DNA from: Escherichia coli
Lineage (GTDB): Bacteria; Pseudomonadota; Gammaproteobacteria; Enterobacterales; Enterobacteriaceae
DNA: 64,000 nt
Strand: one strand, 5' to 3'
NCBI RefSeq assembly: GCF_003018255.1
Contig: NZ_CP027440.1
Part shown: piece after piece, positions 6,532 through 62,435 of the stretch
Layout: each line of letters starts with the position of its first letter
Numbering within the stretch: the stretch's first letter is position 1
Notes under the pieces: model-generated
Seen by the model: only the letters and a program-made list of their open reading frames with translations
What the model was told of the DNA's origin: nothing
Databases searched by the model: none
Position numbers and translations under genes: made by a program

Positions 6532-6641
6532 TTTTTCTTCTCCTCCGAAAAATCATCAGATTTCCATCATTTTTGGCGATGTTGTCTATTATTAATTTGC
6601 TATAGGCAAACATAAATAACATTACCTAAAAGGAAGACGTT

Positions 6642-6788
6642 ATGGTGAAGAAGACAATTGCAGCGATCTTTTCTGTTCTGGTGCTTTCAACAGTATTAAC
6701 TGCCTGCAACACCACGCGTGGCGTTGGTGAAGACATTTCTGATGGCGGTAACGCGATTTCTGGCGCAGCAACGAAAGCGCAGCAGTAA
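6642..6788 (+). CDS. ecnB: Entericidin B small lipoprotein
   Basis: 48-codon [51 protein letters not shown] with RBS aggaag; below ORF-track cutoff. Confidence 0.85.
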
Positions 6789-7903: not shown

Positions 7904-9459
<1,556 letters not shown>

Positions 9460-9469
9460 CTCAGGCTCC

Positions 9470-15434: not shown

Positions 15435-15496
15435 TCATATGAAATCCTGCAACTCATCGTCTCTCCGGCGATGAGTTGTCTGGAAAGGAAGACGTT

Positions 15497-15811
15497 ATGG
15501 ACGACGCTAGTCGGGATCCAGTGATAACCGAAGATGAAATCAGGGAGCTGCAATTTTCTGCCGGGGATGTGGCGGAAATAGAGCAAACGGTCCTCTCTTT
15601 TGTCGATACCCGCCACACCCGCAAAGTAGCGATGGTGGTGGGTAACACTATTAATACCCTCAAAGAGCGCGATGGTCCGCGGTGGGGAAACCTGCCGGAT
15701 ATCTATTGCGCTTATCTTATTAGATGTCTGGTTTTTCGCGGAGAATTAGTGGGATACGGCGATTTGTTTCGTATGCGCTATAGCGAAATTAAGCGACCGA
15801 TTATCTCATGA
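15497..15811 (+). CDS. yjeN: Uncharacterised small protein YjeN
   Basis: ORF track frame; start at ATG 15497 with RBS aggaag, 104 aa. Confidence 0.8.
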   Translation: MDDASRDPVITEDEIRELQFSAGDVAEIEQTVLSFVDTRHTRKVAMVVGNTINTLKERDGPRWGNLPDIYCAYLIRCLVFRGELVGYGDLFRMRYSEIKRPIIS

Positions 15812-22465: not shown

Positions 22466-22541
<76 letters not shown>

Positions 22542-22698
22542 AAATTTGAAAAGTGCTGCAAAGCACAGACCACCCAATCGCAGTATTTCGAATTGCGACA
22601 AGGCGGCAACTGAACGAATCCTTGGGAACTTACAAAAGTAAGTGACTAAGGTGAGTGAAGGCAGCCAAGGCAGTAGCGGTTCGAAAGACGAAGATTAA

Positions 22699-22774
<76 letters not shown>

Positions 22775-22809
22775 AAATTTGAAAGTGCTGTAAAGCACAG
22801 ACCACCCAA

Positions 22810-22885
<76 letters not shown>

Positions 22886-26291: not shown

Positions 26292-27629
26292 ATGATGTAT
26301 CGCATCAGAAATTGGTTGGTAGCGACGTTGCTGCTGCTGTGCGCGCAGGTGGGTGCCGCGACGCTCTCTGATATTCAGGTTTCTAACGGTAATCAACAGG
26401 CGCGGATAACGTTGAGTTTTATTGGCGATCCTGATTATGCGTTTAGCCATCAAAGCAAACGCACCGTGGCGCTCGATATCAAACAAACGGGCGTGATTCA
26501 GGGACTGCCGTTGTTGTTCAGCGGCAATAATCTGGTGAAGGCGATTCGCTCTGGAACGCCTAAAGATGCACAAACGCTACGGCTGGTGGTCGATCTTACC
26601 GAAAATGGTAAAACCGAAGCGGTGAAGCGGCAGAATGGCAGCAATTACACTGTCGTCTTTACGATTAACGCCGATGTGCCGCCACCGCCTCCTCCGCCGC
26701 CTGTGGTTGCGAAACGCGTTGAAACGCCTGCGGTTGTCGCACCGCGCGTCAGCGAACCGGCGCGCAATCCGTTTAAAACGGAAAGTAACCGCACTACGGG
26801 TGTTATCAGCAGTAATACGGTAACGCGTCCGGCAGCGCGTGCGACGGCTAACACTGGCGATAAAATTATCATCGCTATTGATGCCGGACACGGCGGTCAG
26901 GATCCTGGCGCTATCGGCCCCGGTGGTACGCGGGAGAAAAATGTCACCATCGCCATCGCGCGTAAATTGCGTACTTTGCTCAATGACGATCCGATGTTTA
27001 AAGGCGTTTTAACCCGTGACGGGGATTACTTTATCTCGGTGATGGGGCGCAGCGATGTGGCACGTAAGCAAAACGCCAATTTCCTCGTGTCGATTCACGC
27101 TGATGCCGCACCGAACCGCAGTGCGACTGGCGCTTCCGTATGGGTGCTCTCTAACCGTCGCGCCAACAGCGAAATGGCCAGCTGGCTGGAGCAGCACGAG
27201 AAACAGTCGGAGCTACTGGGCGGAGCGGGCGATGTGCTGGCGAACAGTCAGTCTGACCCCTATTTAAGCCAGGCGGTGCTGGATTTACAGTTCGGTCATT
27301 CCCAGCGGGTAGGGTATGATGTAGCGACCAGTATGATCAGTCAGTTGCAACGCATTGGCGAAATACATAAACGCCGACCAGAACACGCGAGTCTCGGCGT
27401 TCTGCGTTCGCCGGATATTCCGTCAGTACTGGTCGAAACCGGTTTTATCAGTAACAACAGCGAAGAACGTTTGCTGGCGAGCGACGATTACCAACAACAG
27501 CTGGCAGAAGCCATTTACAAAGGCCTGCGCAATTACTTCCTTGCGCATCCGATGCAATCTGCGCCGCAGGGTGCAACGGCACAAACGGCCAGTACGGTGA
27601 CGACGCCAGATCGCACGCTGCCAAACTAA
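26292..27629 (+). CDS. amiB: N-acetylmuramoyl-L-alanine amidase AmiB
   Basis: ORF track frame; start at ATG 26292 ([22 protein letters not shown]), 445 aa; contains an 8-Pro linker. Confidence 0.93.
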
Positions 27630-27638
27630 GGACGATTG

Positions 27639-39413: not shown

Positions 39414-40145
39414 ATGAGCGAAATGATTTACGGCATCCATGCAGTGCAGGCCCTGCTGGAGCGCGCCCCTGAACGTTTTCAGGAAGTCTTTATTTTAAAA
39501 GGCCGTGAAGATAAACGTCTGTTACCGCTGATTCACGCCCTTGAGTCTCAGGGCGTGGTTATCCAGTTGGCAAACCGCCAATATCTCGACGAGAAAAGCG
39601 ACGGTGCCGTGCATCAGGGCATTATCGCTCGTGTGAAGCCAGGACGGCAGTATCAGGAAAACGATCTGCCGGATCTGATCGCTTCGCTCGATCAACCGTT
39701 CCTGCTGATCCTCGACGGCGTAACCGATCCGCACAACCTCGGCGCGTGCCTGCGTAGCGCGGACGCCGCTGGTGTTCATGCGGTGATTGTGCCGAAAGAT
39801 CGCTCCGCACAGCTCAACGCCACGGCGAAAAAAGTGGCCTGTGGTGCGGCAGAAAGCGTTCCGCTGATTCGGGTGACTAATCTGGCGCGCACCATGCGTA
39901 TGTTGCAGGAAGAGAATATCTGGATCGTCGGTACGGCAGGCGAGGCGGATCATACACTCTATCAGAGCAAAATGACCGGACGCCTGGCGCTGGTGATGGG
40001 CGCGGAAGGTGAAGGTATGCGTCGCCTGACCCGTGAACATTGCGATGAGTTGATCAGCATCCCAATGGCAGGAAGTGTTTCTTCCCTGAACGTTTCGGTT
40101 GCAACCGGAATTTGCTTATTTGAAGCGGTTCGTCAGCGCAGCTAG
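39414..40145 (+). CDS. rlmB: 23S rRNA (Gm2251) 2-prime-O-methyltransferase RlmB
   Basis: ORF track 243 aa; SpoU/TrmH family, recognised as RlmB. Confidence 0.95.
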
Positions 40146-40160
40146 TTCCTCTGAATTATG

Positions 40161-40192
40161 AAAAGCCATCCAGATTTGGATGGTTTTTTTTT
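40161..40192 (+). terminator. Rho-independent terminator after rlmB
   Basis: Hairpin ccatcca-gatt-tggatgg followed by 9-nt T-tract. Confidence 0.8.
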
Positions 40193-40271
40193 GTCTATAG
40201 CTGGTAAGATAATTACGTACTGCAAATATTCATTTTATTAATATTTAAACTTAATTTATATGGAATAATAT

Positions 40272-40673
40272 ATGACATGGAATCCGTTGGCGCTGGCGAC
40301 GGCGCTGCAAACTGTACCTGAACAAAATATTGATGTAACAAATAGCGAGAACGCATTAATTATTAAAATGAATGATTATGGCGATTTGCAAATCAATATT
40401 CTATTTACTTCCCGCCAAATGATTATCGAAACCTTTATTTGTCCGGTAAGTAGTATCAGCAATCCAGATGAATTTAATACCTTCTTATTAAGAAATCAGA
40501 AGATGATGCCGTTGTCATCGGTAGGGATCTCCAGCGTGCAACATGAAGAGTATTACATTGTTTTCGGTGCGTTATCGCTTAAATCTTCTCTTGAAGATAT
40601 CCTGCTTGAGATAACCTCGCTGGTAGATAACGCATTGGATCTGGCTGAAATTACAGAAGAATATTCACACTAA
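40272..40673 (+). CDS. yjfI: Uncharacterised protein YjfI (DUF2170)
   Basis: ORF track 133 aa. Confidence 0.85.
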   Translation: MTWNPLALATALQTVPEQNIDVTNSENALIIKMNDYGDLQINILFTSRQMIIETFICPVSSISNPDEFNTFLLRNQKMMPLSSVGISSVQHEEYYIVFGALSLKSSLEDILLEITSLVDNALDLAEITEEYSH

Positions 40674-40691
40674 TTACAAGGACGGGTATTT

Positions 40692-41390
40692 ATGGGAATT
40701 TTAAAAAGTTTATTTACGCTGGGGAAATCGTTTATCTCCCAGGCGGAAGAATCCATTGAAGAAACCCAGGGCGTGCGCATGCTGGAACAGCATATTCGTG
40801 ACGCTAAAGCTGAACTCGATAAAGCCGGAAAATCTCGCGTTGATCTGCTGGCGCGGGTGAAATTAAGTCACGATAAGCTGAAAGATTTACGTGAGCGCAA
40901 AGCCAGTCTGGAAGCTCGTGCGCTGGAAGCGTTAAGCAAGAACGTTAATCCGTCGTTGATTAACGAAGTTGCTGAAGAAATCGCGCGCCTTGAGAATCTC
41001 ATTACCGCTGAAGAGCAAGTGTTGTCGAATCTGGAAGTCTCTCGTGATGGCGTGGAAAAAGCAGTTACAGCGACAGCGCAGCGTATCGCTCAGTTTGAGC
41101 AGCAAATGGAAGTCGTTAAAGCTACTGAAGCCATGCAGCGTGCACAACAGGCTGTAACGACCTCTACTGTTGGCGCATCTTCCAGCGTTTCGACAGCGGC
41201 AGAATCCTTAAAACGCCTGCAAACGCGTCAGGCCGAACGTCAGGCTCGCCTGGATGCTGCCGCACAGTTGGAAAAAGTCGCAGACGGTCGCGATCTTGAT
41301 GAAAAGCTGGCGGAAGCCGGAATTGGCGGTAGCAATAAAAGTAGCGCCCAGGATGTATTAGCAAGACTGCAACGCCAACAGGGCGAGTAA
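40692..41390 (+). CDS. yjfJ: PspA/IM30-family protein YjfJ
   Basis: ORF track 232 aa; coiled-coil rich; recognised as YjfJ. Confidence 0.88.
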   Translation: MGILKSLFTLGKSFISQAEESIEETQGVRMLEQHIRDAKAELDKAGKSRVDLLARVKLSHDKLKDLRERKASLEARALEALSKNVNPSLINEVAEEIARLENLITAEEQVLSNLEVSRDGVEKAVTATAQRIAQFEQQMEVVKATEAMQRAQQAVTTSTVGASSSVSTAAESLKRLQTRQAERQARLDAAAQLEKVADGRDLDEKLAEAGIGGSNKSSAQDVLARLQRQQGE

Positions 41391-41439
41391 TTTTTTGCCA
41401 GCCTCACTGCAAGGCTGGCAACTATTTTAAGGATAAAAT

Positions 41440-42099
41440 ATGTCTGGTTTTTTCCAGCGTCTGTTTGGCAAGGATAATAAGCCTGCTATCGCTCGCGGTC
41501 CTCTGGGACTTCATCTCAATAGTGGCTTTACGCTCGACACGTTAGCGTTTCGTTTGCTGGAAGATGAATTGCTGATTGCGCTGCCGGGTGAGGAATTTAC
41601 GGTAGCCGCTGTCAGCCGCATCGATCTGGGCGGCGGTAGCCAGATTTTCCGCTACTACACTTCAGGCGATGAGTTTCTGCAAATCAATACCACTGGCGGC
41701 GAAGATATTGATGACATTGATGATATCAAGCTCTTTGTCTATGAAGAGAGCTACGGTATCAGTAAAGAGAGTCACTGGCGCGAGGCGATCAATGCCAAAG
41801 CGATGGGGGCAATGACCTTAAACTGGCAGGAAAAACGCTGGCAGCGATTTTTTAATAGCGAAGAACCGGGAAATATCGAACCCGTCTACATGCTGGAAAA
41901 AGTAGAAAATCAAAACCATGCTAAATGGGAGGTCCATAATTTTACCATGGGCTATCAACGGCAAGTGACCGAAGATACTTACGAATATCTGCTGTTAAAT
42001 GGTGAGGAATCTTTTAATGATCTCGGCGAGCCGGAGTGGTTATTTTCGCGCGCGCTGGGGGTCGATATCCCGCTGACATCACTTCATATTATTGGTTAA
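41440..42099 (+). CDS. yjfK: Uncharacterised protein YjfK (DUF2491)
   Basis: ORF track 219 aa. Confidence 0.85.
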   Translation: MSGFFQRLFGKDNKPAIARGPLGLHLNSGFTLDTLAFRLLEDELLIALPGEEFTVAAVSRIDLGGGSQIFRYYTSGDEFLQINTTGGEDIDDIDDIKLFVYEESYGISKESHWREAINAKAMGAMTLNWQEKRWQRFFNSEEPGNIEPVYMLEKVENQNHAKWEVHNFTMGYQRQVTEDTYEYLLLNGEESFNDLGEPEWLFSRALGVDIPLTSLHIIG

Positions 42100-42116
42100 T
42101 TACAAGGACGTTTACG

Positions 42117-42515
42117 ATGCATATACTGGATTCACTTCTTGCCTTTAGCGCTTATTTTTTTATTGGTGTGGCTATGGTGATTATTTTTCTGTTTATCTAC
42201 TCCAAAATTACACCGCACAACGAATGGCAGTTAATCAAAAATAATAACACCGCGGCGGCACTGGCGTTCAGCGGAACATTGTTGGGGTACGTGATCCCCT
42301 TATCCAGTGCGGCAATCAATGCGGTGAGTATTCCAGACTATTTCGCATGGGGCGGGATTGCTCTGGTGATTCAATTACTCGTTTTTGCTGGCGTCAGGCT
42401 TTATATGCCCGCATTAAGCGAAAAAATTATTAATCACAATACCGCAGCAGGAATGTTTATGGGAACCGCCGCGCTGGCTGGCGGTATTTTTAACGCAGCT
42501 TGTATGACATGGTAA
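42117..42515 (+). CDS. yjfL: Inner-membrane protein YjfL (DUF350)
   Basis: ORF track frame; start at ATG 42117 (MHILDSLLAFSAYFFIGVAMV), 132 aa. Confidence 0.85.
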   Translation: MHILDSLLAFSAYFFIGVAMVIIFLFIYSKITPHNEWQLIKNNNTAAALAFSGTLLGYVIPLSSAAINAVSIPDYFAWGGIALVIQLLVFAGVRLYMPALSEKIINHNTAAGMFMGTAALAGGIFNAACMTW

Positions 42516-42524
42516 TGGACGATC

Positions 42525-43163
42525 ATGGCCAGAAAACGCAAATCCAGAAATAACAAAAATATCGGATATGGGGCAATCAGTCGCATTGGTAGACCGCATA
42601 ATCCTTTTGAGCCGCGCCGCAATCGCTACGCACAAAAATACTTAACGTTGGCGCTAATGGGCGGTGCCGCTTTTTTCGTATTGAAAGGTTGTGGCGATAG
42701 TGGCGATGTCGATAACGACGGCGACGGAACGTTTTACGCGACTGTGCAGGATTGTATTGATGACGGTAATAATGCAGACATTTGCGCGCGTGGCTGGAAC
42801 AACGCCAAAGCGGCGTTTTATGCCGATGTTCCGAAGAATATGACTCAGCAGAATTGTCAGTCTAAGTACGAAAATTGCTACTACGACAATGTTGAACAGA
42901 GTTGGATCCCGGTCGTTTCTGGATTTTTGTTAAGCCGGGTTATTCGTAAAGATCGCGATGAGCCGTTCGTCTATAACAGCGGCGGATCCTCATTTGCTTC
43001 GCGCCCCGTCTGGCGCAACACTTCTGGTGATTACTCCTGGCGCTCCGGTTCTGGCAAAAAAGAGTCTTACTCTTCGGGCGGCTTTACCACCAAAAAAGCG
43101 TCAACCGTTTCTCGCGGCGGCTATGGTCGTTCTTCCAGCGCCCGTGGGCATTGGGGAGGCTAA
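42525..43163 (+). CDS. yjfM: Uncharacterised protein YjfM (DUF1190)
   Basis: ORF track 212 aa; N-terminal membrane anchor, Cys-rich segment. Confidence 0.85.
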   Translation: MARKRKSRNNKNIGYGAISRIGRPHNPFEPRRNRYAQKYLTLALMGGAAFFVLKGCGDSGDVDNDGDGTFYATVQDCIDDGNNADICARGWNNAKAAFYADVPKNMTQQNCQSKYENCYYDNVEQSWIPVVSGFLLSRVIRKDRDEPFVYNSGGSSFASRPVWRNTSGDYSWRSGSGKKESYSSGGFTTKKASTVSRGGYGRSSSARGHWGG

Positions 43164-43165
43164 TC

Positions 43166-44329
43166 ATGCTGAGACACAACGTTCCTGTGCGGCGGGATCT
43201 GGACCAGATCGCCGCTGACAACGGTTTCGACTTTCATATCATCGACAATGAAATCTATTGGGACGAGAGTCGAGCTTACCGTTTTACTCTGCGCCAGATT
43301 GAAGAGCAGATCGAAAAACCGACTGCGGAACTGCATCAGATGTGCCTTGAGGTGGTGGATCGCGCGGTTAAAGACGAAGAGATCCTGACGCAACTGGCGA
43401 TCCCGCCGTTGTACTGGGATGTGATCGCCGAAAGCTGGCGCGCACGCGATCCTTCGTTGTATGGCCGTATGGATTTTGCCTGGTGTGGTAATGCACCGGT
43501 TAAGTTGCTGGAGTACAACGCCGATACGCCAACTTCATTGTACGAGTCGGCTTATTTCCAGTGGTTGTGGCTGGAAGATGCCCGGCGCAGCGGCGTTATT
43601 CCGCGCGATGCCGATCAGTACAATGCCATTCAGGAGCGCCTGATTTCACGCTTTAGCGAGCTTTACAGTCGGGAACCGTTTTATTTTTGCTGCTGTCAGG
43701 ACACCGACGAAGACAGGAGTACCGTGCTGTACTTGCAGGACTGCGCCGAGCAGGCAGGGCAGGAGTCGCGGTTTATCTACATTGAAGATCTCGGTTTGGG
43801 CGTCGGCGGTGTGCTGACCGATCTTGATGATAATGTCATCCAGCGTGCATTTAAGCTGTATCCGCTGGAGTGGATGATGCGTGACGATAACGGTCCGCTG
43901 CTGCGCAAGCGTCGCGAGCAATGGGTGGAGCCGTTATGGAAAAGTATCTTGAGTAATAAAGGGCTAATGCCGCTGCTTTGGCGCTTCTTCCCTGGTCATC
44001 CTAACCTTCTTGCATCCTGGTTCGATGGTGAAAAACCGCAGATTGCCGCTGGCGAAAGCTATGTGCGTAAACCGATTTACTCGCGCGAAGGCGGAAACGT
44101 CACCATTTTCGACGGTCAGAATAACGTTGTTGACCACGCTGATGGTGATTACGCCGATGAACCGATGATCTACCAGGCGTTTCAACCTCTGCCGCGATTT
44201 GGCGATAGCTACACACTCATCGGTAGCTGGATTGTCGATGATGAAGCGTGCGGAATGGGGATCCGTGAAGATAACACGTTGATCACCAAAGACACCTCAC
44301 GTTTCGTTCCGCATTACATTGCTGGATAA
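43166..44329 (+). CDS. yjfC: Glutathionylspermidine-synthetase-like ATP-grasp protein YjfC
   Basis: ORF track frame; start at ATG 43166 (MLRHNVPVRRDLDQIAADNG), 387 aa. Confidence 0.88.
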   Translation: MLRHNVPVRRDLDQIAADNGFDFHIIDNEIYWDESRAYRFTLRQIEEQIEKPTAELHQMCLEVVDRAVKDEEILTQLAIPPLYWDVIAESWRARDPSLYGRMDFAWCGNAPVKLLEYNADTPTSLYESAYFQWLWLEDARRSGVIPRDADQYNAIQERLISRFSELYSREPFYFCCCQDTDEDRSTVLYLQDCAEQAGQESRFIYIEDLGLGVGGVLTDLDDNVIQRAFKLYPLEWMMRDDNGPLLRKRREQWVEPLWKSILSNKGLMPLLWRFFPGHPNLLASWFDGEKPQIAAGESYVRKPIYSREGGNVTIFDGQNNVVDHADGDYADEPMIYQAFQPLPRFGDSYTLIGSWIVDDEACGMGIREDNTLITKDTSRFVPHYIAG

Positions 44330-44412
44330 GAATGTTTTAGCAATCTCTTTCTGTCATGAATCCATGGCAGTGACCATACTAATGGTGACTGCCATTGATG
44401 GAGGGAGACACA

Positions 44413-51521: not shown

Positions 51522-51827
51522 ATGACCGTACGTATTCTGGCTGTGTGTGGCAACGGACAAGGCAGTTCCATGATCATGAAAATGAAAGTGGACCAGTTTT
51601 TAACCCAGTCGAACATTGACCACACGGTAAACAGCTGCGCGGTTGGCGAATACAAAAGCGAGTTGAGCGGCGCGGATATCATCATCGCTTCTACCCATAT
51701 TGCGGGCGAAATCACTGTGACCGGCAACAAATATGTGGTTGGCGTGCGCAATATGCTCTCTCCTGCCGACTTTGGCCCGAAATTGCTGGAAGTGATCAAA
51801 GAGCATTTTCCGCAGGACGTGAAGTAA
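51522..51827 (+). CDS. ulaB: Ascorbate PTS EIIB
   Basis: ORF track frame; start at ATG 51522 ([16 protein letters not shown]), 101 aa. Confidence 0.95.
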
Positions 51828-51836
51828 GGACGCGCC

Positions 51837-52314: not shown

Positions 52315-52965
52315 ATGTCATTACCGATGTTGCAGGTCGCGCTGGACAACCAGACTATGGATAGCGCCTATGAAACCACTCGCCTGATTGCCGAAGAAGT
52401 CGACATTATCGAAGTGGGTACCATTCTGTGCGTGGGCGAAGGCGTGCGTGCGGTTCGCGATCTGAAAGCGCTTTACCCGCACAAAATCGTACTGGCAGAC
52501 GCCAAAATTGCCGATGCGGGCAAAATCCTTTCTCGTATGTGCTTCGAAGCTAACGCTGACTGGGTGACCGTGATTTGCTGTGCGGATATCAACACAGCTA
52601 AAGGTGCGCTGGACGTGGCAAAAGAGTTTAACGGCGACGTGCAGATCGAACTGACCGGTTACTGGACCTGGGAACAGGCGCAACAGTGGCGCGACGCAGG
52701 CATTGGGCAGGTGGTTTATCACCGCAGCCGTGACGCACAGGCCGCAGGTGTGGCGTGGGGCGAAGCGGACATTACCGCGATCAAACGTCTTTCCGATATG
52801 GGCTTCAAAGTCACCGTCACCGGTGGTCTGGCGCTGGAAGATCTGCCGTTGTTTAAAGGCATTCCGATTCATGTGTTTATCGCTGGTCGCAGCATTCGTG
52901 ATGCCGCTTCTCCGGTGGAGGCCGCACGTCAGTTCAAACGTTCCATCGCTGAACTGTGGGGCTAA
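52315..52965 (+). CDS. ulaD: 3-keto-L-gulonate-6-phosphate decarboxylase UlaD
   Basis: ORF track frame; start at ATG 52315 ([19 protein letters not shown]), 216 aa. Confidence 0.95.
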
Positions 52966-52974
52966 GGAGCGGAT

Positions 52975-57581: not shown

Positions 57582-58850
57582 ATGGCATTAATCGGAGTGT
57601 ATGCGGATTGGGAAGGCCTGGATGGTCCGGAGCGGATTGGTTATTTACACAGTCGCCGCACTCGGACGCGTGAGATATTTGAGTTTGAGTACGATAAAAA
57701 GGCGCTTGCAGATCCTTCACTTAATTTCATTCAGTTAGATCCTGAAATAATGTTGTATGAGGGAGCACACTACCCAATTCCTCCAAAGGATAAATTTGGT
57801 GCATTTAGTGATTCCTGCCCGGATCGTTGGGGGCGTATGCTAATGAAGCGTCGTTTTGAGAGGGATATTCGAGACGGGTTATGTGATAAAGACTCCCACC
57901 TTTATGAGTCTGATTATCTACTAGGTGTTCATGATCTTTATCGGGTTGGGGCCCTTCGATACAAACGTGAAGACGCTGGAGAGTTTCTTGATAATCGCAT
58001 TGATGTTGCAGCCCCACCATTTACCGAAATAGCGAGTCTGGAAAGGGCTAGCCGGGCAATTGAAGAAGATCCTGATAATAAAGAGCTAATGGGGCAAAAA
58101 TGGTTAAGAATGCTAATCGCTCCGGGGGGATCATTAGGGGGGGCACGTCCGAAAGCCAGTGTTGTTGATGAAGCTGGGCATCTCTACATCGCTAAATTTC
58201 CCAGTGTAAAAGATGAGTATGATGTTGGTGGATGGGAAATGGCCGTTAATGCACTTGCTGTTGGCTGTGGACTGAATGTTGCACCTGCTCAGGCGCATAA
58301 ATTTGCCAGCAATTACCATTGTTTTATGGTTCGTCGTTTTGACCGCACTAATGCGGGAAGGCGTCTGCATTTTGCTTCGGCTATGACACTAACCAGGCAT
58401 CAGGATGGTGAAGATGCCTCTACAGGTGTGAGTTATCTGGAATTAGCAGATGTTCTTATCAGGCATGGCGCGCAGACTAATACTGATCTTAAGGAACTCT
58501 GGTCCAGGATTGTTTTTAATATTCTTGTTTCTAATACCGATGATCATTTACGCAATCATGGATTTATCTTGATACCAGGAAAAGGTTGGCGGCTTTCTGA
58601 GGCATATGATTTGAATCCTGTGGTCAGGTCTGATGGTTTAAAACTCAATATTACGGAAAATGACAATGCACTTGATTTGGAATTAGCTAGAGAAGTTGCA
58701 GAGTATTTTCGACTTAGTTTGACGGAAGCTGATGACATTATTGCTAATTTTAGAGGGATTGTCAGTCAGTGGCGAATCATTGCCGAGCGTCTGAGATTAC
58801 CTGGTCGTGAGCAAGAGTTAATGGCAGAGGCATTCAGAGCGTCAATTTAG
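57582..58850 (+). CDS. HipA-family serine/threonine kinase (putative toxin)
   Basis: ORF track 422 aa; HipA-like motifs GGARPK (res ~186-191), NTDDHLRNHG (res ~318-327), AYD (res ~341-343) and N-terminal SDSCPDRWGR resembling the HipA N-subdomain; RBS aaaagga. Confidence 0.75.
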   Translation: MALIGVYADWEGLDGPERIGYLHSRRTRTREIFEFEYDKKALADPSLNFIQLDPEIMLYEGAHYPIPPKDKFGAFSDSCPDRWGRMLMKRRFERDIRDGLCDKDSHLYESDYLLGVHDLYRVGALRYKREDAGEFLDNRIDVAAPPFTEIASLERASRAIEEDPDNKELMGQKWLRMLIAPGGSLGGARPKASVVDEAGHLYIAKFPSVKDEYDVGGWEMAVNALAVGCGLNVAPAQAHKFASNYHCFMVRRFDRTNAGRRLHFASAMTLTRHQDGEDASTGVSYLELADVLIRHGAQTNTDLKELWSRIVFNILVSNTDDHLRNHGFILIPGKGWRLSEAYDLNPVVRSDGLKLNITENDNALDLELAREVAEYFRLSLTEADDIIANFRGIVSQWRIIAERLRLPGREQELMAEAFRASI

Positions 58851-60270: not shown

Positions 60271-60362
60271 TTTTAAACCTTTTAATTATATTAATAAACC
60301 CTGGTTGTTGGTATTTCCATGTAATAGGCAATAAAAATCAGGTACAGAGGAAATATTGAAAA

Positions 60363-62435
60363 TTATTGTGTGTAAATGTCTCCCTTTAAAAAATCTGGCC
60401 AGTTTTTTTCAAAGTAAATACCGTTAATACACGGTTGCATACGTAAAGACTTTACTTCGGTAATAAAAGAACCTTGCGAATATTGAATTGTTAATTTGTG
60501 ATTTTTGTCTTCAGCGAGTTCAGAGCGAAAACGCCATTCTTCTTTTGCGCCGCGACGAGTTTGTGGTAGGCATTTGCCTTGTGGATCAATAACCATACGC
60601 GCCCCACGGCTACCACCACCAGCATCAATATAATGCGTTAATTGTGTTAATACCGCGGCAGAAGTCAGCGCCATATGCCGCCACATAAACAGCTCGGCAA
60701 CTTCACCCACATGTTTGATTGCCAATCCATGCCGTTGGACAAATTCGTTCAATAGCAGGGCATCACGAGTGGCACGTCGGACTTTATCGGCATGGCAAAT
60801 AAATCCCGCATAGTCAGACATTCGTGCCTGAATTTTTTCTCTCACAACCGACAACGGCATCCCGGTCCCGTTATCGTGCGCCTGAGTAATGATCTCTCTT
60901 ATAGAAGCCAGTGCCGGAGCTACCAGCTGTGCTATATCTCCATCAATATTACGTTTTTGCGTGCAACCAATAAAACGTGCCAGACGAACAGCAAAAACCT
61001 GCCCGGCATTCAATGCCGCACCACCAGGGCGAGTGACGCCGTGTGTGCCAGCAACTTCCCCCACGGCGAAACAGCCGGGCAGGGAGGTTTGTCCCCAGAT
61101 ATCCACTTCAATGCCGCCATTCATATGCTGATTATTCATGGCAAACTGCAAAGGCTGTGTGGTGAGATCGTAACCGTGCATCTTATACAGCGAGATAGAC
61201 AGCGGATTCATTCGTTGCAGCCGTTCGATGGGCGATGGTGCCAGAGCGTCGTTATTTTCCAGATACGCGCGAACGTCGTCGTCCAGTCGATCTAATGAGA
61301 AGGGCAGGTCACCCGGCACCGCTTCAGGATTGCGATTGAAATCCATAAATACCTGACGCCCTGATTGCTGCTCTTGCGCTACAGCCATATCTAACAAGCT
61401 GGAGCCAAACTCCATTACCCGAGTGGCGTGGAACGGCCACTGATAGCCTTTACGAAAAATGTTTGAAGCCAGCTCCTGGGTGGTGCGATAGTAATCCGCG
61501 AGGAAGTTATACTCGTTGCCCCCGGCATCCACGGAATAGATATGTGGGATCACCTGCACATAGGTGCCGGACAAATTCCACGGAAACGTGCTGCGCGGTG
61601 TGCCTATACCAAACTGGCTTTCAGTCAAATTGGTTAGCGTCAGACCTTCTTCCAGCGCCAGCCCCAGCGAGCCGAAACATTTGTGTGGGTACACACTGTC
61701 GCGATAAAGCTCGCCAGGCCCTCCTGTTGCCAGTACCACATTGGGCGCAATCACAATTGCCAGCCCCCATGGGTTATGGACGCGATGACCGGTCGCGAGG
61801 ATAGCCCCCGCCACGCGGTCTTCGCCGTTTTCGTCACGCTGATGCAGCAGTTTAATCACTGTTGCACTGGTCAACATTGGGATAGCAAGACGCTGTACTT
61901 CTTCCAGCAGCACTTTCACCATTAACCTTGAGGTACGTGGCCCACACGAGGTTGCACGCCCGGCTTCGTCATGGTCGGTTTGATAACGAAGAATCGCACC
62001 ATAGCGATCTTCCGGTAATTCCAGACCAAGATATTGCAACCCGCCAAGAGTGTGCAGAGAACCTACCGCTTCGACATAAGCAGTGTCGTGATCCATCGCC
62101 CCACCACTCGCCAGTGCCTCTGCCAGTTTGGTGAAGTTGTCGCCGTTGCCCGCGGTAGCGGCGGTAAACAGCGTCTGTTTATCGGAACCGGAGCAGGCCG
62201 ATGTTCCCATGTATAACCCGGCGGTGGCGATTAACACATTTTGCTGGCGGCGTTTAAGTTCCACAGCTGCACGCAGCCCGGCTGCACCACTGCCGACTAC
62301 CAGGGCATCTGTTTGCCAAAGTGGGTAATCAACACCGTCTACCGTGACAACCCATGCGGGTTCTGCCTGTGCAAAACCCTTTGGGAAAGTAACGTGCGTC
62401 AGCGCATCAAGGATGGTGTCATCAAGCTGACTCAT
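60363..62435 (-). CDS. FAD-dependent oxidoreductase, fumarate reductase/succinate dehydrogenase flavoprotein-like
   Basis: ORF track 690 aa; dinucleotide-binding VVGSGAAGLRAA and FrdA-like segment CFAVGEVAGTHGVTRPGGAALNAGQVF; ATG overlaps the upstream stop (ATGA). Confidence 0.7.
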   Translation of the reverse strand: MSQLDDTILDALTHVTFPKGFAQAEPAWVVTVDGVDYPLWQTDALVVGSGAAGLRAAVELKRRQQNVLIATAGLYMGTSACSGSDKQTLFTAATAGNGDNFTKLAEALASGGAMDHDTAYVEAVGSLHTLGGLQYLGLELPEDRYGAILRYQTDHDEAGRATSCGPRTSRLMVKVLLEEVQRLAIPMLTSATVIKLLHQRDENGEDRVAGAILATGHRVHNPWGLAIVIAPNVVLATGGPGELYRDSVYPHKCFGSLGLALEEGLTLTNLTESQFGIGTPRSTFPWNLSGTYVQVIPHIYSVDAGGNEYNFLADYYRTTQELASNIFRKGYQWPFHATRVMEFGSSLLDMAVAQEQQSGRQVFMDFNRNPEAVPGDLPFSLDRLDDDVRAYLENNDALAPSPIERLQRMNPLSISLYKMHGYDLTTQPLQFAMNNQHMNGGIEVDIWGQTSLPGCFAVGEVAGTHGVTRPGGAALNAGQVFAVRLARFIGCTQKRNIDGDIAQLVAPALASIREIITQAHDNGTGMPLSVVREKIQARMSDYAGFICHADKVRRATRDALLLNEFVQRHGLAIKHVGEVAELFMWRHMALTSAAVLTQLTHYIDAGGGSRGARMVIDPQGKCLPQTRRGAKEEWRFRSELAEDKNHKLTIQYSQGSFITEVKSLRMQPCINGIYFEKNWPDFLKGDIYTQ

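Follow-up and report, generated by a model that had tools for sequence, protein, structure and literature searches.

Ribosome-binding sites (RBSs) repressed by CsrA are known from the leaders of glgC, cstA, pgaA and hfq, in which a GGA motif overlaps the Shine-Dalgarno sequence. The CsrA dimer can reach a second GGA about 10–60 nt away. CsrA sites are also found at operon junctions such as that of nhaAR, and Potts et al. (2017) reported 78 stop-proximal CLIP-seq peaks that overlap the next gene of the operon, for which they proposed discordant operon expression. The CsrA consensus given in the same study is ruACArGGAugu from SELEX and AuGGAug from CLIP. Two junctions of the Escherichia coli yjfIJKL operon are probably a new example of this kind of site, the CsrA-type RBS. 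The operon is poorly understood; it encodes a PspA-like protein, and a recent laboratory-evolution study connected it with heat tolerance. It behaves as a co-regulated unit, a single iModulon driven by a promoter upstream of yjfI. YjfI and YjfJ have been described as a dyad of a CesT/Tir-like chaperone and a PspA protein, and the partners of this dyad in the literature (a potassium channel, DUF350, DUF1190, DUF2491 and an ATP-grasp ligase) belong to unrelated families.

The operon was analysed in a stretch of E. coli DNA of 64,000 nt (the window), where it lies on the + strand. The first gene, yjfI (40272..40673; DUF2170, CesT/Tir-like chaperone fold), ends in TAA and is followed by yjfJ (40692..41390; PspA/IM30 family, PspA_IM30); yjfK (41440..42099; DUF2491) also ends in TAA and is followed by yjfL (42117..42515; a DUF350 membrane protein). 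The annotations of a matching strain (DETEC-S792) and of K-12 agree on these assignments. The first-pass annotation had pointed out that the same 14 nt run from the yjfI stop to the yjfJ RBS and from the yjfK stop to the yjfL RBS, with TAA as the stop and the ATG 6–7 nt further on, and both sequence and annotation confirmed this. Exact matches to TAATTACAAGGACG are located on the + strand at 40671–40684 (copy 1, junction 1) and 42097–42110 (copy 2, junction 2), 1,426 nt apart in one operon. Each copy comprises the TAA stop, a TTAC linker and the Shine-Dalgarno sequence AAGGA(CG), with the ATG 7 nt on from copy 1 and 6 nt on from copy 2. The AAGGA lies 8–9 nt upstream of the ATG at both junctions, with the GGA core inside the Shine-Dalgarno sequence, which in turn lies inside the stop-to-start spacer (18 nt between yjfI and yjfJ, 17 nt between yjfK and yjfL). 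The identity stops abruptly on both sides (c/t on the left, g/t on the right). No third copy was found in the window, even with two mismatches allowed, and no further copies were present in 264 kb of E. coli sequence (the window plus 200 kb).

Like the dispersed repeats REP/BIME and ERIC/IRU, the 14-mer is a short sequence repeated between genes. It differs from them in that it has two copies in 264 kb, is non-palindromic, is without significant structure or Rfam match, and overlaps functional stop and Shine-Dalgarno signals. With generic coupled junctions of the TAAGGAG type the two sites share the same-strand arrangement, a spacer of 17–18 nt and a Shine-Dalgarno sequence within reach of a terminating ribosome. 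The yjfJ and yjfL junctions have the geometry of a translationally coupled operon junction and may be coupled. Other junctions of the window share the 8-mers TAAGGACG and TAAGGAGC, whereas the 14-nt identity far exceeds the 7–9 nt that are typical of constraint-driven matches. The next junction of the operon, from yjfL to yjfM (42513..42527, + strand; TAATGGACGATCATG), has TAAT...GGACG in common with the 14-mer. Its 9-nt spacer is near invariant in Escherichia and Citrobacter and far better conserved than both focal junctions.

As a bare repeat, 14 nt is ordinary, since the window contains 20 maximal exact direct repeats of at least 14 nt; its direct repeats of 76–86 nt are explained by three tandem tRNA-Gly genes (22466–22885). 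The position of the identity relative to the stop codon is less ordinary. To build a null, same-strand junctions were called from ORFs in the window and four 50-kb regions (264 kb of E. coli in all), which gave 53 junctions and 1,378 pairs of them. The in-register identity reached 8 nt in five pairs (the focal pair included), 9 nt in two, and at least 10 nt in the focal pair alone. From position-wise match probabilities, the probability of 14 nt in register is ∼7e-7 to 1e-6 per pair, which extrapolates from the 264 kb to roughly 0.4 to 1 such pair per genome and ∼1e-3 for two junctions of the same operon. The null is likely to be overly strict, as it under-predicted the 8–9 nt class about two-fold.

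The sequence space of RBSs and junctions is narrow. The 8-mer TAAGGACG occurs in register at the unrelated amiB-to-mutL (27627–27634) and ulaB-to-ulaC (51825–51832) junctions, and TAAGGAGC at the frdC-to-frdD (9457–9464, − strand) and ulaD-to-ulaE (52963–52970) junctions, because stop codons that overlap the Shine-Dalgarno sequence restrict what a junction can contain. Stop codons, Shine-Dalgarno sequences and regulator motifs together restrict sequence space enough for a short stop-to-RBS identity to arise without duplication. The window also holds a 17-nt identity, AAAGGAAGACGTTATGG, at the RBSs of ecnB and yjeN, unrelated genes 8.9 kb apart (6629–6645 and 15484–15500). It is in register with the start codon, spans the Shine-Dalgarno sequence, the spacer, the ATG and the next base, and exceeds the focal 14-mer in length. 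Coincidence between RBSs may again be the explanation, or it may be something else.

The conservation of the 14-mer was followed through orthologues gathered via protein homologues and their encoding contigs. Both copies were intact in all E. coli loci inspected. When allele-specific 41-nt megablast queries were run against 5,426 complete E. coli genomes, the E. coli allele of junction 1 (yjfJ) was recovered from 5,314 and that of junction 2 (yjfL) from 5,352 (∼98% each), and the alleles of the sister lineages from none of the 5,426. Outside the species, the 14-mer was intact in two Escherichia sp. assemblies (L001, and L004, which covers junction 2 only). In E. whittamii the two junctions read AAGGAAAAG and ACAGGGACG (in longer form TAATTACAAGGAAAAG and TAATTACAGGGACG), in L003, a divergent strain that NCBI lists as E. 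coli, ..AAGGACCAG and ..ACAGGGACG, in E. fergusonii AAGGACCAG and TTTCAGGGAAG (the second also given as TAATTTCAGGGAAG), and in Salmonella TAATACAGGCGGC.. and TAAGCACATACAGGGAAATT. The junctions differ again, by substitutions and by indels or length changes, in Citrobacter, Kosakonia, Enterobacter, Buttiauxella, Atlantibacter, Rahnella and Serratia microhaemolytica. Conservation in orthologous clusters, which the first-pass annotation had named as a check, was not borne out, the 14-mer being intact only in E. coli and the two Escherichia sp. assemblies. Judged from these alignments, it is not a conserved cassette, and the sister junctions drift independently. A search of genome contigs with YjfK returned Escherichia loci only, plus two tiny contaminant contigs. 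These contigs, of 237 and 394 nt (Bacillus sanguinis; Methylobacillus sp. MM3), encode fragments 99–100% identical to E. coli YjfK and are probably E. coli contamination.

By outgroup comparison, at least two substitutions on the E. coli branch were needed for the identity, namely a change of position 9 from G to A in the yjfL junction and of position 14 from C to G in the yjfJ junction. The Smith-Waterman score between the two junctions of a genome was 8 in E. fergusonii, 10 in E. whittamii, 11 in L003 and 14 in E. coli. Junction 2 has changed more slowly than third-codon positions in Escherichia and Citrobacter (12 of its 14 nt are kept in Citrobacter sp., against a third-position identity of 47%), which fits constraint at the level of the RBS and not a 14-nt element.

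A shorter part of the sequence is conserved. A core of 6–7 nt, CA(R)GGA, was found at 13 of the 20 yjfJ and yjfL RBSs from ten genomes of nine genera. Counted by gene, the pattern CA.?GGA was present at the RBS of yjfJ in 6/10 genomes, of yjfL in 7/10 and of yjfI in 4/9. Among the other RBSs of the same loci it occurred in 4 of 54, all four belonging to yjfI, and in none of the 45 RBSs of rlmB, the channel gene, yjfK, yjfM, yjfC and aidB. The Fisher p for this enrichment was 1e-6, a value that overstates the case because the species are not independent; the contrast between genes within the same loci is still clear. In the window itself, ACA.?GGA within 25 nt 5' of the start was seen in 2 of the 66 annotated genes, yjfJ and yjfL only. 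Rahnella is without yjfI, so that yjfJ is the first gene, and still has ACAAGGAAGTATTC upstream of the ATG. In its extended form, (U)ACA(R)GGA(U)G, the conserved sequence resembles the core of the CsrA-binding consensus. The shared regulatory element that the first-pass annotation had considered therefore survives in reduced form: not as the whole 14-mer, since the junctions of orthologues differ, but as a CsrA-type CA(R)GGA core of 6–7 nt that is kept at both RBSs in many genera, and the yjfL copy lies under a published CsrA CLIP peak.

This peak is peak_428 of Supplementary Data 1 in Potts et al. (2017) (CAUCACUUCAUAUUAUUGGUUAAUUACAAGGACGUUUACAAUGCAUAUACUGGAU; log2FC 1.77, padj 3.7e-5), which is assigned to yjfK and yjfL. 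We mapped it from K-12 (4411939–4411993) to 42077..42131 on the + strand of the window, and its summit offset, mapped on K-12, falls on the A-G-G of ACAAGGA in copy 2. At the yjfI start a weaker peak, peak_427 (padj 0.092, below the authors' threshold), corresponds to 40268..40308 on the + strand (K-12 4410129–4410169) and contains ACAUGGAAU. No CLIP peak is listed between peak_427 and peak_428 in the coordinate-ordered list, which leaves copy 1, also carried by K-12 (4410532–45), without a peak. As one of two identical copies was crosslinked, the 14-mer alone is not what determines crosslinking; the CLIP reads averaged 17 nt (Potts et al., 2017), so that a read centred on the shared 14-mer can be attributed only weakly to either copy. 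The yjf genes are not among the listed rows of the differential-expression, ribosome-profiling/translation and stability tables of Potts et al. (2017), nor do they appear in the supplements of a Salmonella CsrA transcriptomics study and of a 2026 Csr-modelling preprint, and a literature search found no discussion of CsrA together with yjf genes.

Against the SELEX consensus RUACARGGAUGU, the yjfL copy (UUACAAGGACGU) matched at 10 of 12 positions and the yjfJ copy at 9 of 12. Matches with at most two mismatches numbered 11 in the window, against 10.2 expected by chance; the 12-nt consensus with mismatches is thus undiscriminating, and the shorter core motifs and RBS-restricted counts given above were used instead. 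The hairpin with GGA in the loop that marks high-affinity sites was predicted at neither junction (relative to shuffled sequences, z was 0.28 and 1.35 with windows of 80 nt and −1.2 and 1.45 with windows of 40 nt), and copy 2 allows at most a 2-bp AC/GU closure. Both copies are followed by a second GGA on the + strand. Codon 2 of yjfJ contains one (40695..40697; +3 of yjfJ), 15 nt downstream of the GGA of copy 1, which is a possible second contact for a CsrA dimer. The other, in codons 4–5 of yjfL (ACUGGAU; 42128..42130; +11 of yjfL), follows the GGA of copy 2 by 22 nt and falls within the CLIP peak.

Set beside the glgC, cstA, pgaA and hfq leaders, the yjf sites are alike in the GGA motif that overlaps the Shine-Dalgarno sequence, in the second GGA 15–22 nt off and in the in vivo crosslinking reported at the yjfL copy. 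They differ in being intercistronic rather than in a 5' leader, in the predicted structure, which has no GGA-in-loop hairpin, in being without a recorded regulatory effect, and in that one of two identical copies was uncrosslinked. The likeness to the CsrA sites at operon junctions (nhaAR and the 78 peaks of Potts et al., 2017) lies in a peak that spans the stop and the next RBS and start on a polycistronic mRNA. At the yjf operon, unlike at those junctions, the motif recurs at three RBSs (yjfI, yjfJ and yjfL), two of them identical over 14 nt in E. coli, and its function is putative.

Taken together, we consider it probable that the two junctions are ordinary candidate CsrA-type RBSs of separate descent that became identical by coincidence, and that CsrA lowers initiation at them. 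Both 14-mers are the intercistronic RBSs of yjfJ and yjfL, with modest Shine-Dalgarno sequences, on a single yjfIJKL(MC) transcript. Each junction would go back to its own ancestor, both ancestors having carried a CA(R)GGA-type Shine-Dalgarno sequence just 3' of TAA, and two or more point substitutions on the line to E. coli would then have made them identical over 14 nt. Since identity in register is rare (∼1e-6 per pair), the verdict of coincidence rests on the phylogeny and not on probability; the exact 14-nt identity is probably incidental rather than selected. As the core is of the CsrA-binding type and in vivo crosslinking is reported at the yjfL copy, occupancy of the Shine-Dalgarno sequence by CsrA is the most likely function. 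CsrA lying across the Shine-Dalgarno sequence and the early-coding GGA would keep the 30S subunit from binding, and its occupancy would lower initiation of yjfL, and probably of yjfJ and yjfI too, relative to the other cistrons (yjfK, yjfM and yjfC). We infer both CsrA binding at the yjfJ copy and any effect of CsrA on yjf translation. A ribosome that stops at the TAA, which precedes the motif by 4 nt, would be expected to cover the site, so that upstream translation could compete with CsrA.

Other origins of the identity were weighed against this one. The first-pass annotation had suggested the duplication of a two-gene unit, a proposal that did not hold. YjfI, YjfJ, YjfK and YjfL belong to four different Pfam families; BLASTP of YjfI against YjfK and of YjfJ against YjfL gave no match, and hhalign of the ortholog profiles (10–11 orthologues each) gave probabilities of 0.2% and 0.3%. 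With four unrelated families, these negative comparisons and no DNA likeness past the 14 nt, a duplicated two-gene unit is ruled out, and the 14-mer as such is left with neither conservation among orthologues nor homology between the gene pairs. A copied cassette in the wider sense, by segmental duplication of the gene pair or by short-patch gene conversion between the junctions, would account for 14 identical nucleotides in the same register at two sites of the operon, 1,426 nt from each other. It is nevertheless very improbable: the four flanking proteins come from unrelated families, the identity breaks off at 14 nt, which is shorter than the homology normally required for RecA-mediated exchange, and the junctions resemble their own orthologues and not their in-genome partner. 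Concerted evolution was likewise not detected: outside Escherichia, junctions 1 and 2 of one genome are no more alike than junctions taken from different genomes (mean longest common substring 5.0 and 4.6, respectively; permutation p = 0.24), and thus bear no trace of conversion or of cassette copying. The identity might instead have been selected, with E. coli having converged on a pair of identical CsrA operator-RBS units through which YjfJ and YjfL are repressed and released together, apart from YjfI and YjfK. The pair is a statistical outlier among junction pairs, E. coli is fixed for each derived allele, the C-to-G change at junction 1 goes towards the consensus GGA-N-G, and the Smith-Waterman scores climb stepwise (8, 10, 11, 14) to E. 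coli. We still regard selection as improbable, as no other genus has a likeness of the two junctions above chance, the G-to-A change at junction 2 is neutral for the ACARGGA consensus, only one copy was crosslinked, and neutral changes that predate the species are equally expected to be fixed.

A plainer reading would do without any shared trans-acting factor: two ordinary RBSs that coincide by pure chance, with the CLIP peak marking a non-regulatory contact of CsrA with an exposed GGA. It draws on the 14-mer being unconserved beyond E. coli, on consensus-level matches at chance frequency, and on the lack of a hairpin, of a recorded expression effect and of a peak at copy 1. The same window, moreover, holds the unrelated 17-nt ecnB/yjeN RBS identity and the 8-nt in-register junction identities, and Potts et al. 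(2017) noted many peaks without a change in expression. Against it, CA.?GGA is gene-specific, being kept across genera at yjfJ, yjfL and yjfI and found in 0/45 RBSs of the six other genes, and the CLIP summit (padj 3.7e-5) sits exactly on the GGA, so that we hold this reading to be somewhat unlikely, though still plausible. Very little speaks for the junctions being a common target of a base-pairing small RNA or of another RNA-binding protein, or an internal promoter, and we give this possibility hardly any weight. An A/C-rich sequence beside a Shine-Dalgarno sequence is a common type of small RNA target, but no yjf gene occurs in the Hfq CLASH supplementary tables, and an Rfam scan of 40100–44400 returned no match. 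A weak promoter match (ATTACA, 17 nt, TATACT) overlaps copy 2; there are, however, 4 promoter-like sites against 6.3 in shuffled sequences, and copy 1 has no matching −10 element.

If CsrA gates yjfJ and yjfL, and perhaps yjfI, an envelope-stress module would be tied to the global Csr network of carbon and stationary-phase control, and the operon would be a clear case of cistron-specific control. A bolder extension, which we think very improbable, is a built-in CsrA circuit with operators on the yjfI, yjfJ and yjfL RBSs, the last two identical by selection, in which YjfI would titrate CsrA, and YjfJ and its membrane partner YjfL would be released by feed-forward under envelope or heat stress. 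CesT titrates CsrA in EPEC, and the link between the CesT-like YjfI and CsrA is an analogy from this literature. In Pseudomonas aeruginosa, levels of the remaining Bac proteins rise when bacA is lost, which is a misfit for a simple role as CsrA antagonist. For the scanning of genomes, the lesson is that the conservation of the core motif should be checked, not that of the whole repeat.

Several further features were observed in and around the operon. In several other genera, yjfJ and yjfK are separated by an Ion_trans_2 potassium-channel gene of ∼360 aa (about 2430–3520 of the ortholog loci). It is present in Salmonella, Citrobacter sp., Enterobacter, Buttiauxella, Atlantibacter and S. microhaemolytica and missing from E. 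coli, E. fergusonii, C. freundii, Kosakonia and Rahnella. At its place, the 49-nt yjfJ–yjfK gap of the window (41391–41439) contains a strong hairpin of 10 bp with a weak U tract (41395..41421, + strand; ∼−19 kcal/mol for the surrounding 66 nt), which in E. coli is possibly a deletion scar or an internal attenuator. Just 5' of the yjfK ATG, the Shine-Dalgarno sequence AAGGAU is predicted to lie in the loop of a small hairpin, UAUUUUA-AGGA-UAAAAUA (41422–41442). This is the classical geometry of a CsrA site, yet no CLIP peak is reported there.

The yjf segment of the window (40200–42600) represents a minority haplotype, being at least 99% identical in 77 of 5,414 E. coli genomes, with most at ∼97%; most E. 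coli differ from it by a 1-nt length change between yjfJ and yjfK. The 2.4-kb segment is 100% identical to strain DETEC-S792, relative to which the coordinates of the window drift by 1 nt near both window ends. In Salmonella bongori LR134137 the gene calls of rlmB, yjfI, yjfJ, yjfM, yjfC and aidB are fragmented, which suggests a frameshift-rich assembly more than true pseudogenes. Some database entries (P0028, P0046, P0074 and P0092) fuse DUF2491 with DUF350, PspA or DUF1190; because yjfK and yjfL occupy different frames, such fusions are probably artefacts of frameshifts or mis-assembly at the short junctions. Further along the window is a strain-specific segment with a helix-turn-helix gene followed by a frameshifted hipA-family toxin gene, and an IS1 copy nearby (57582–58849; 60330–61027).
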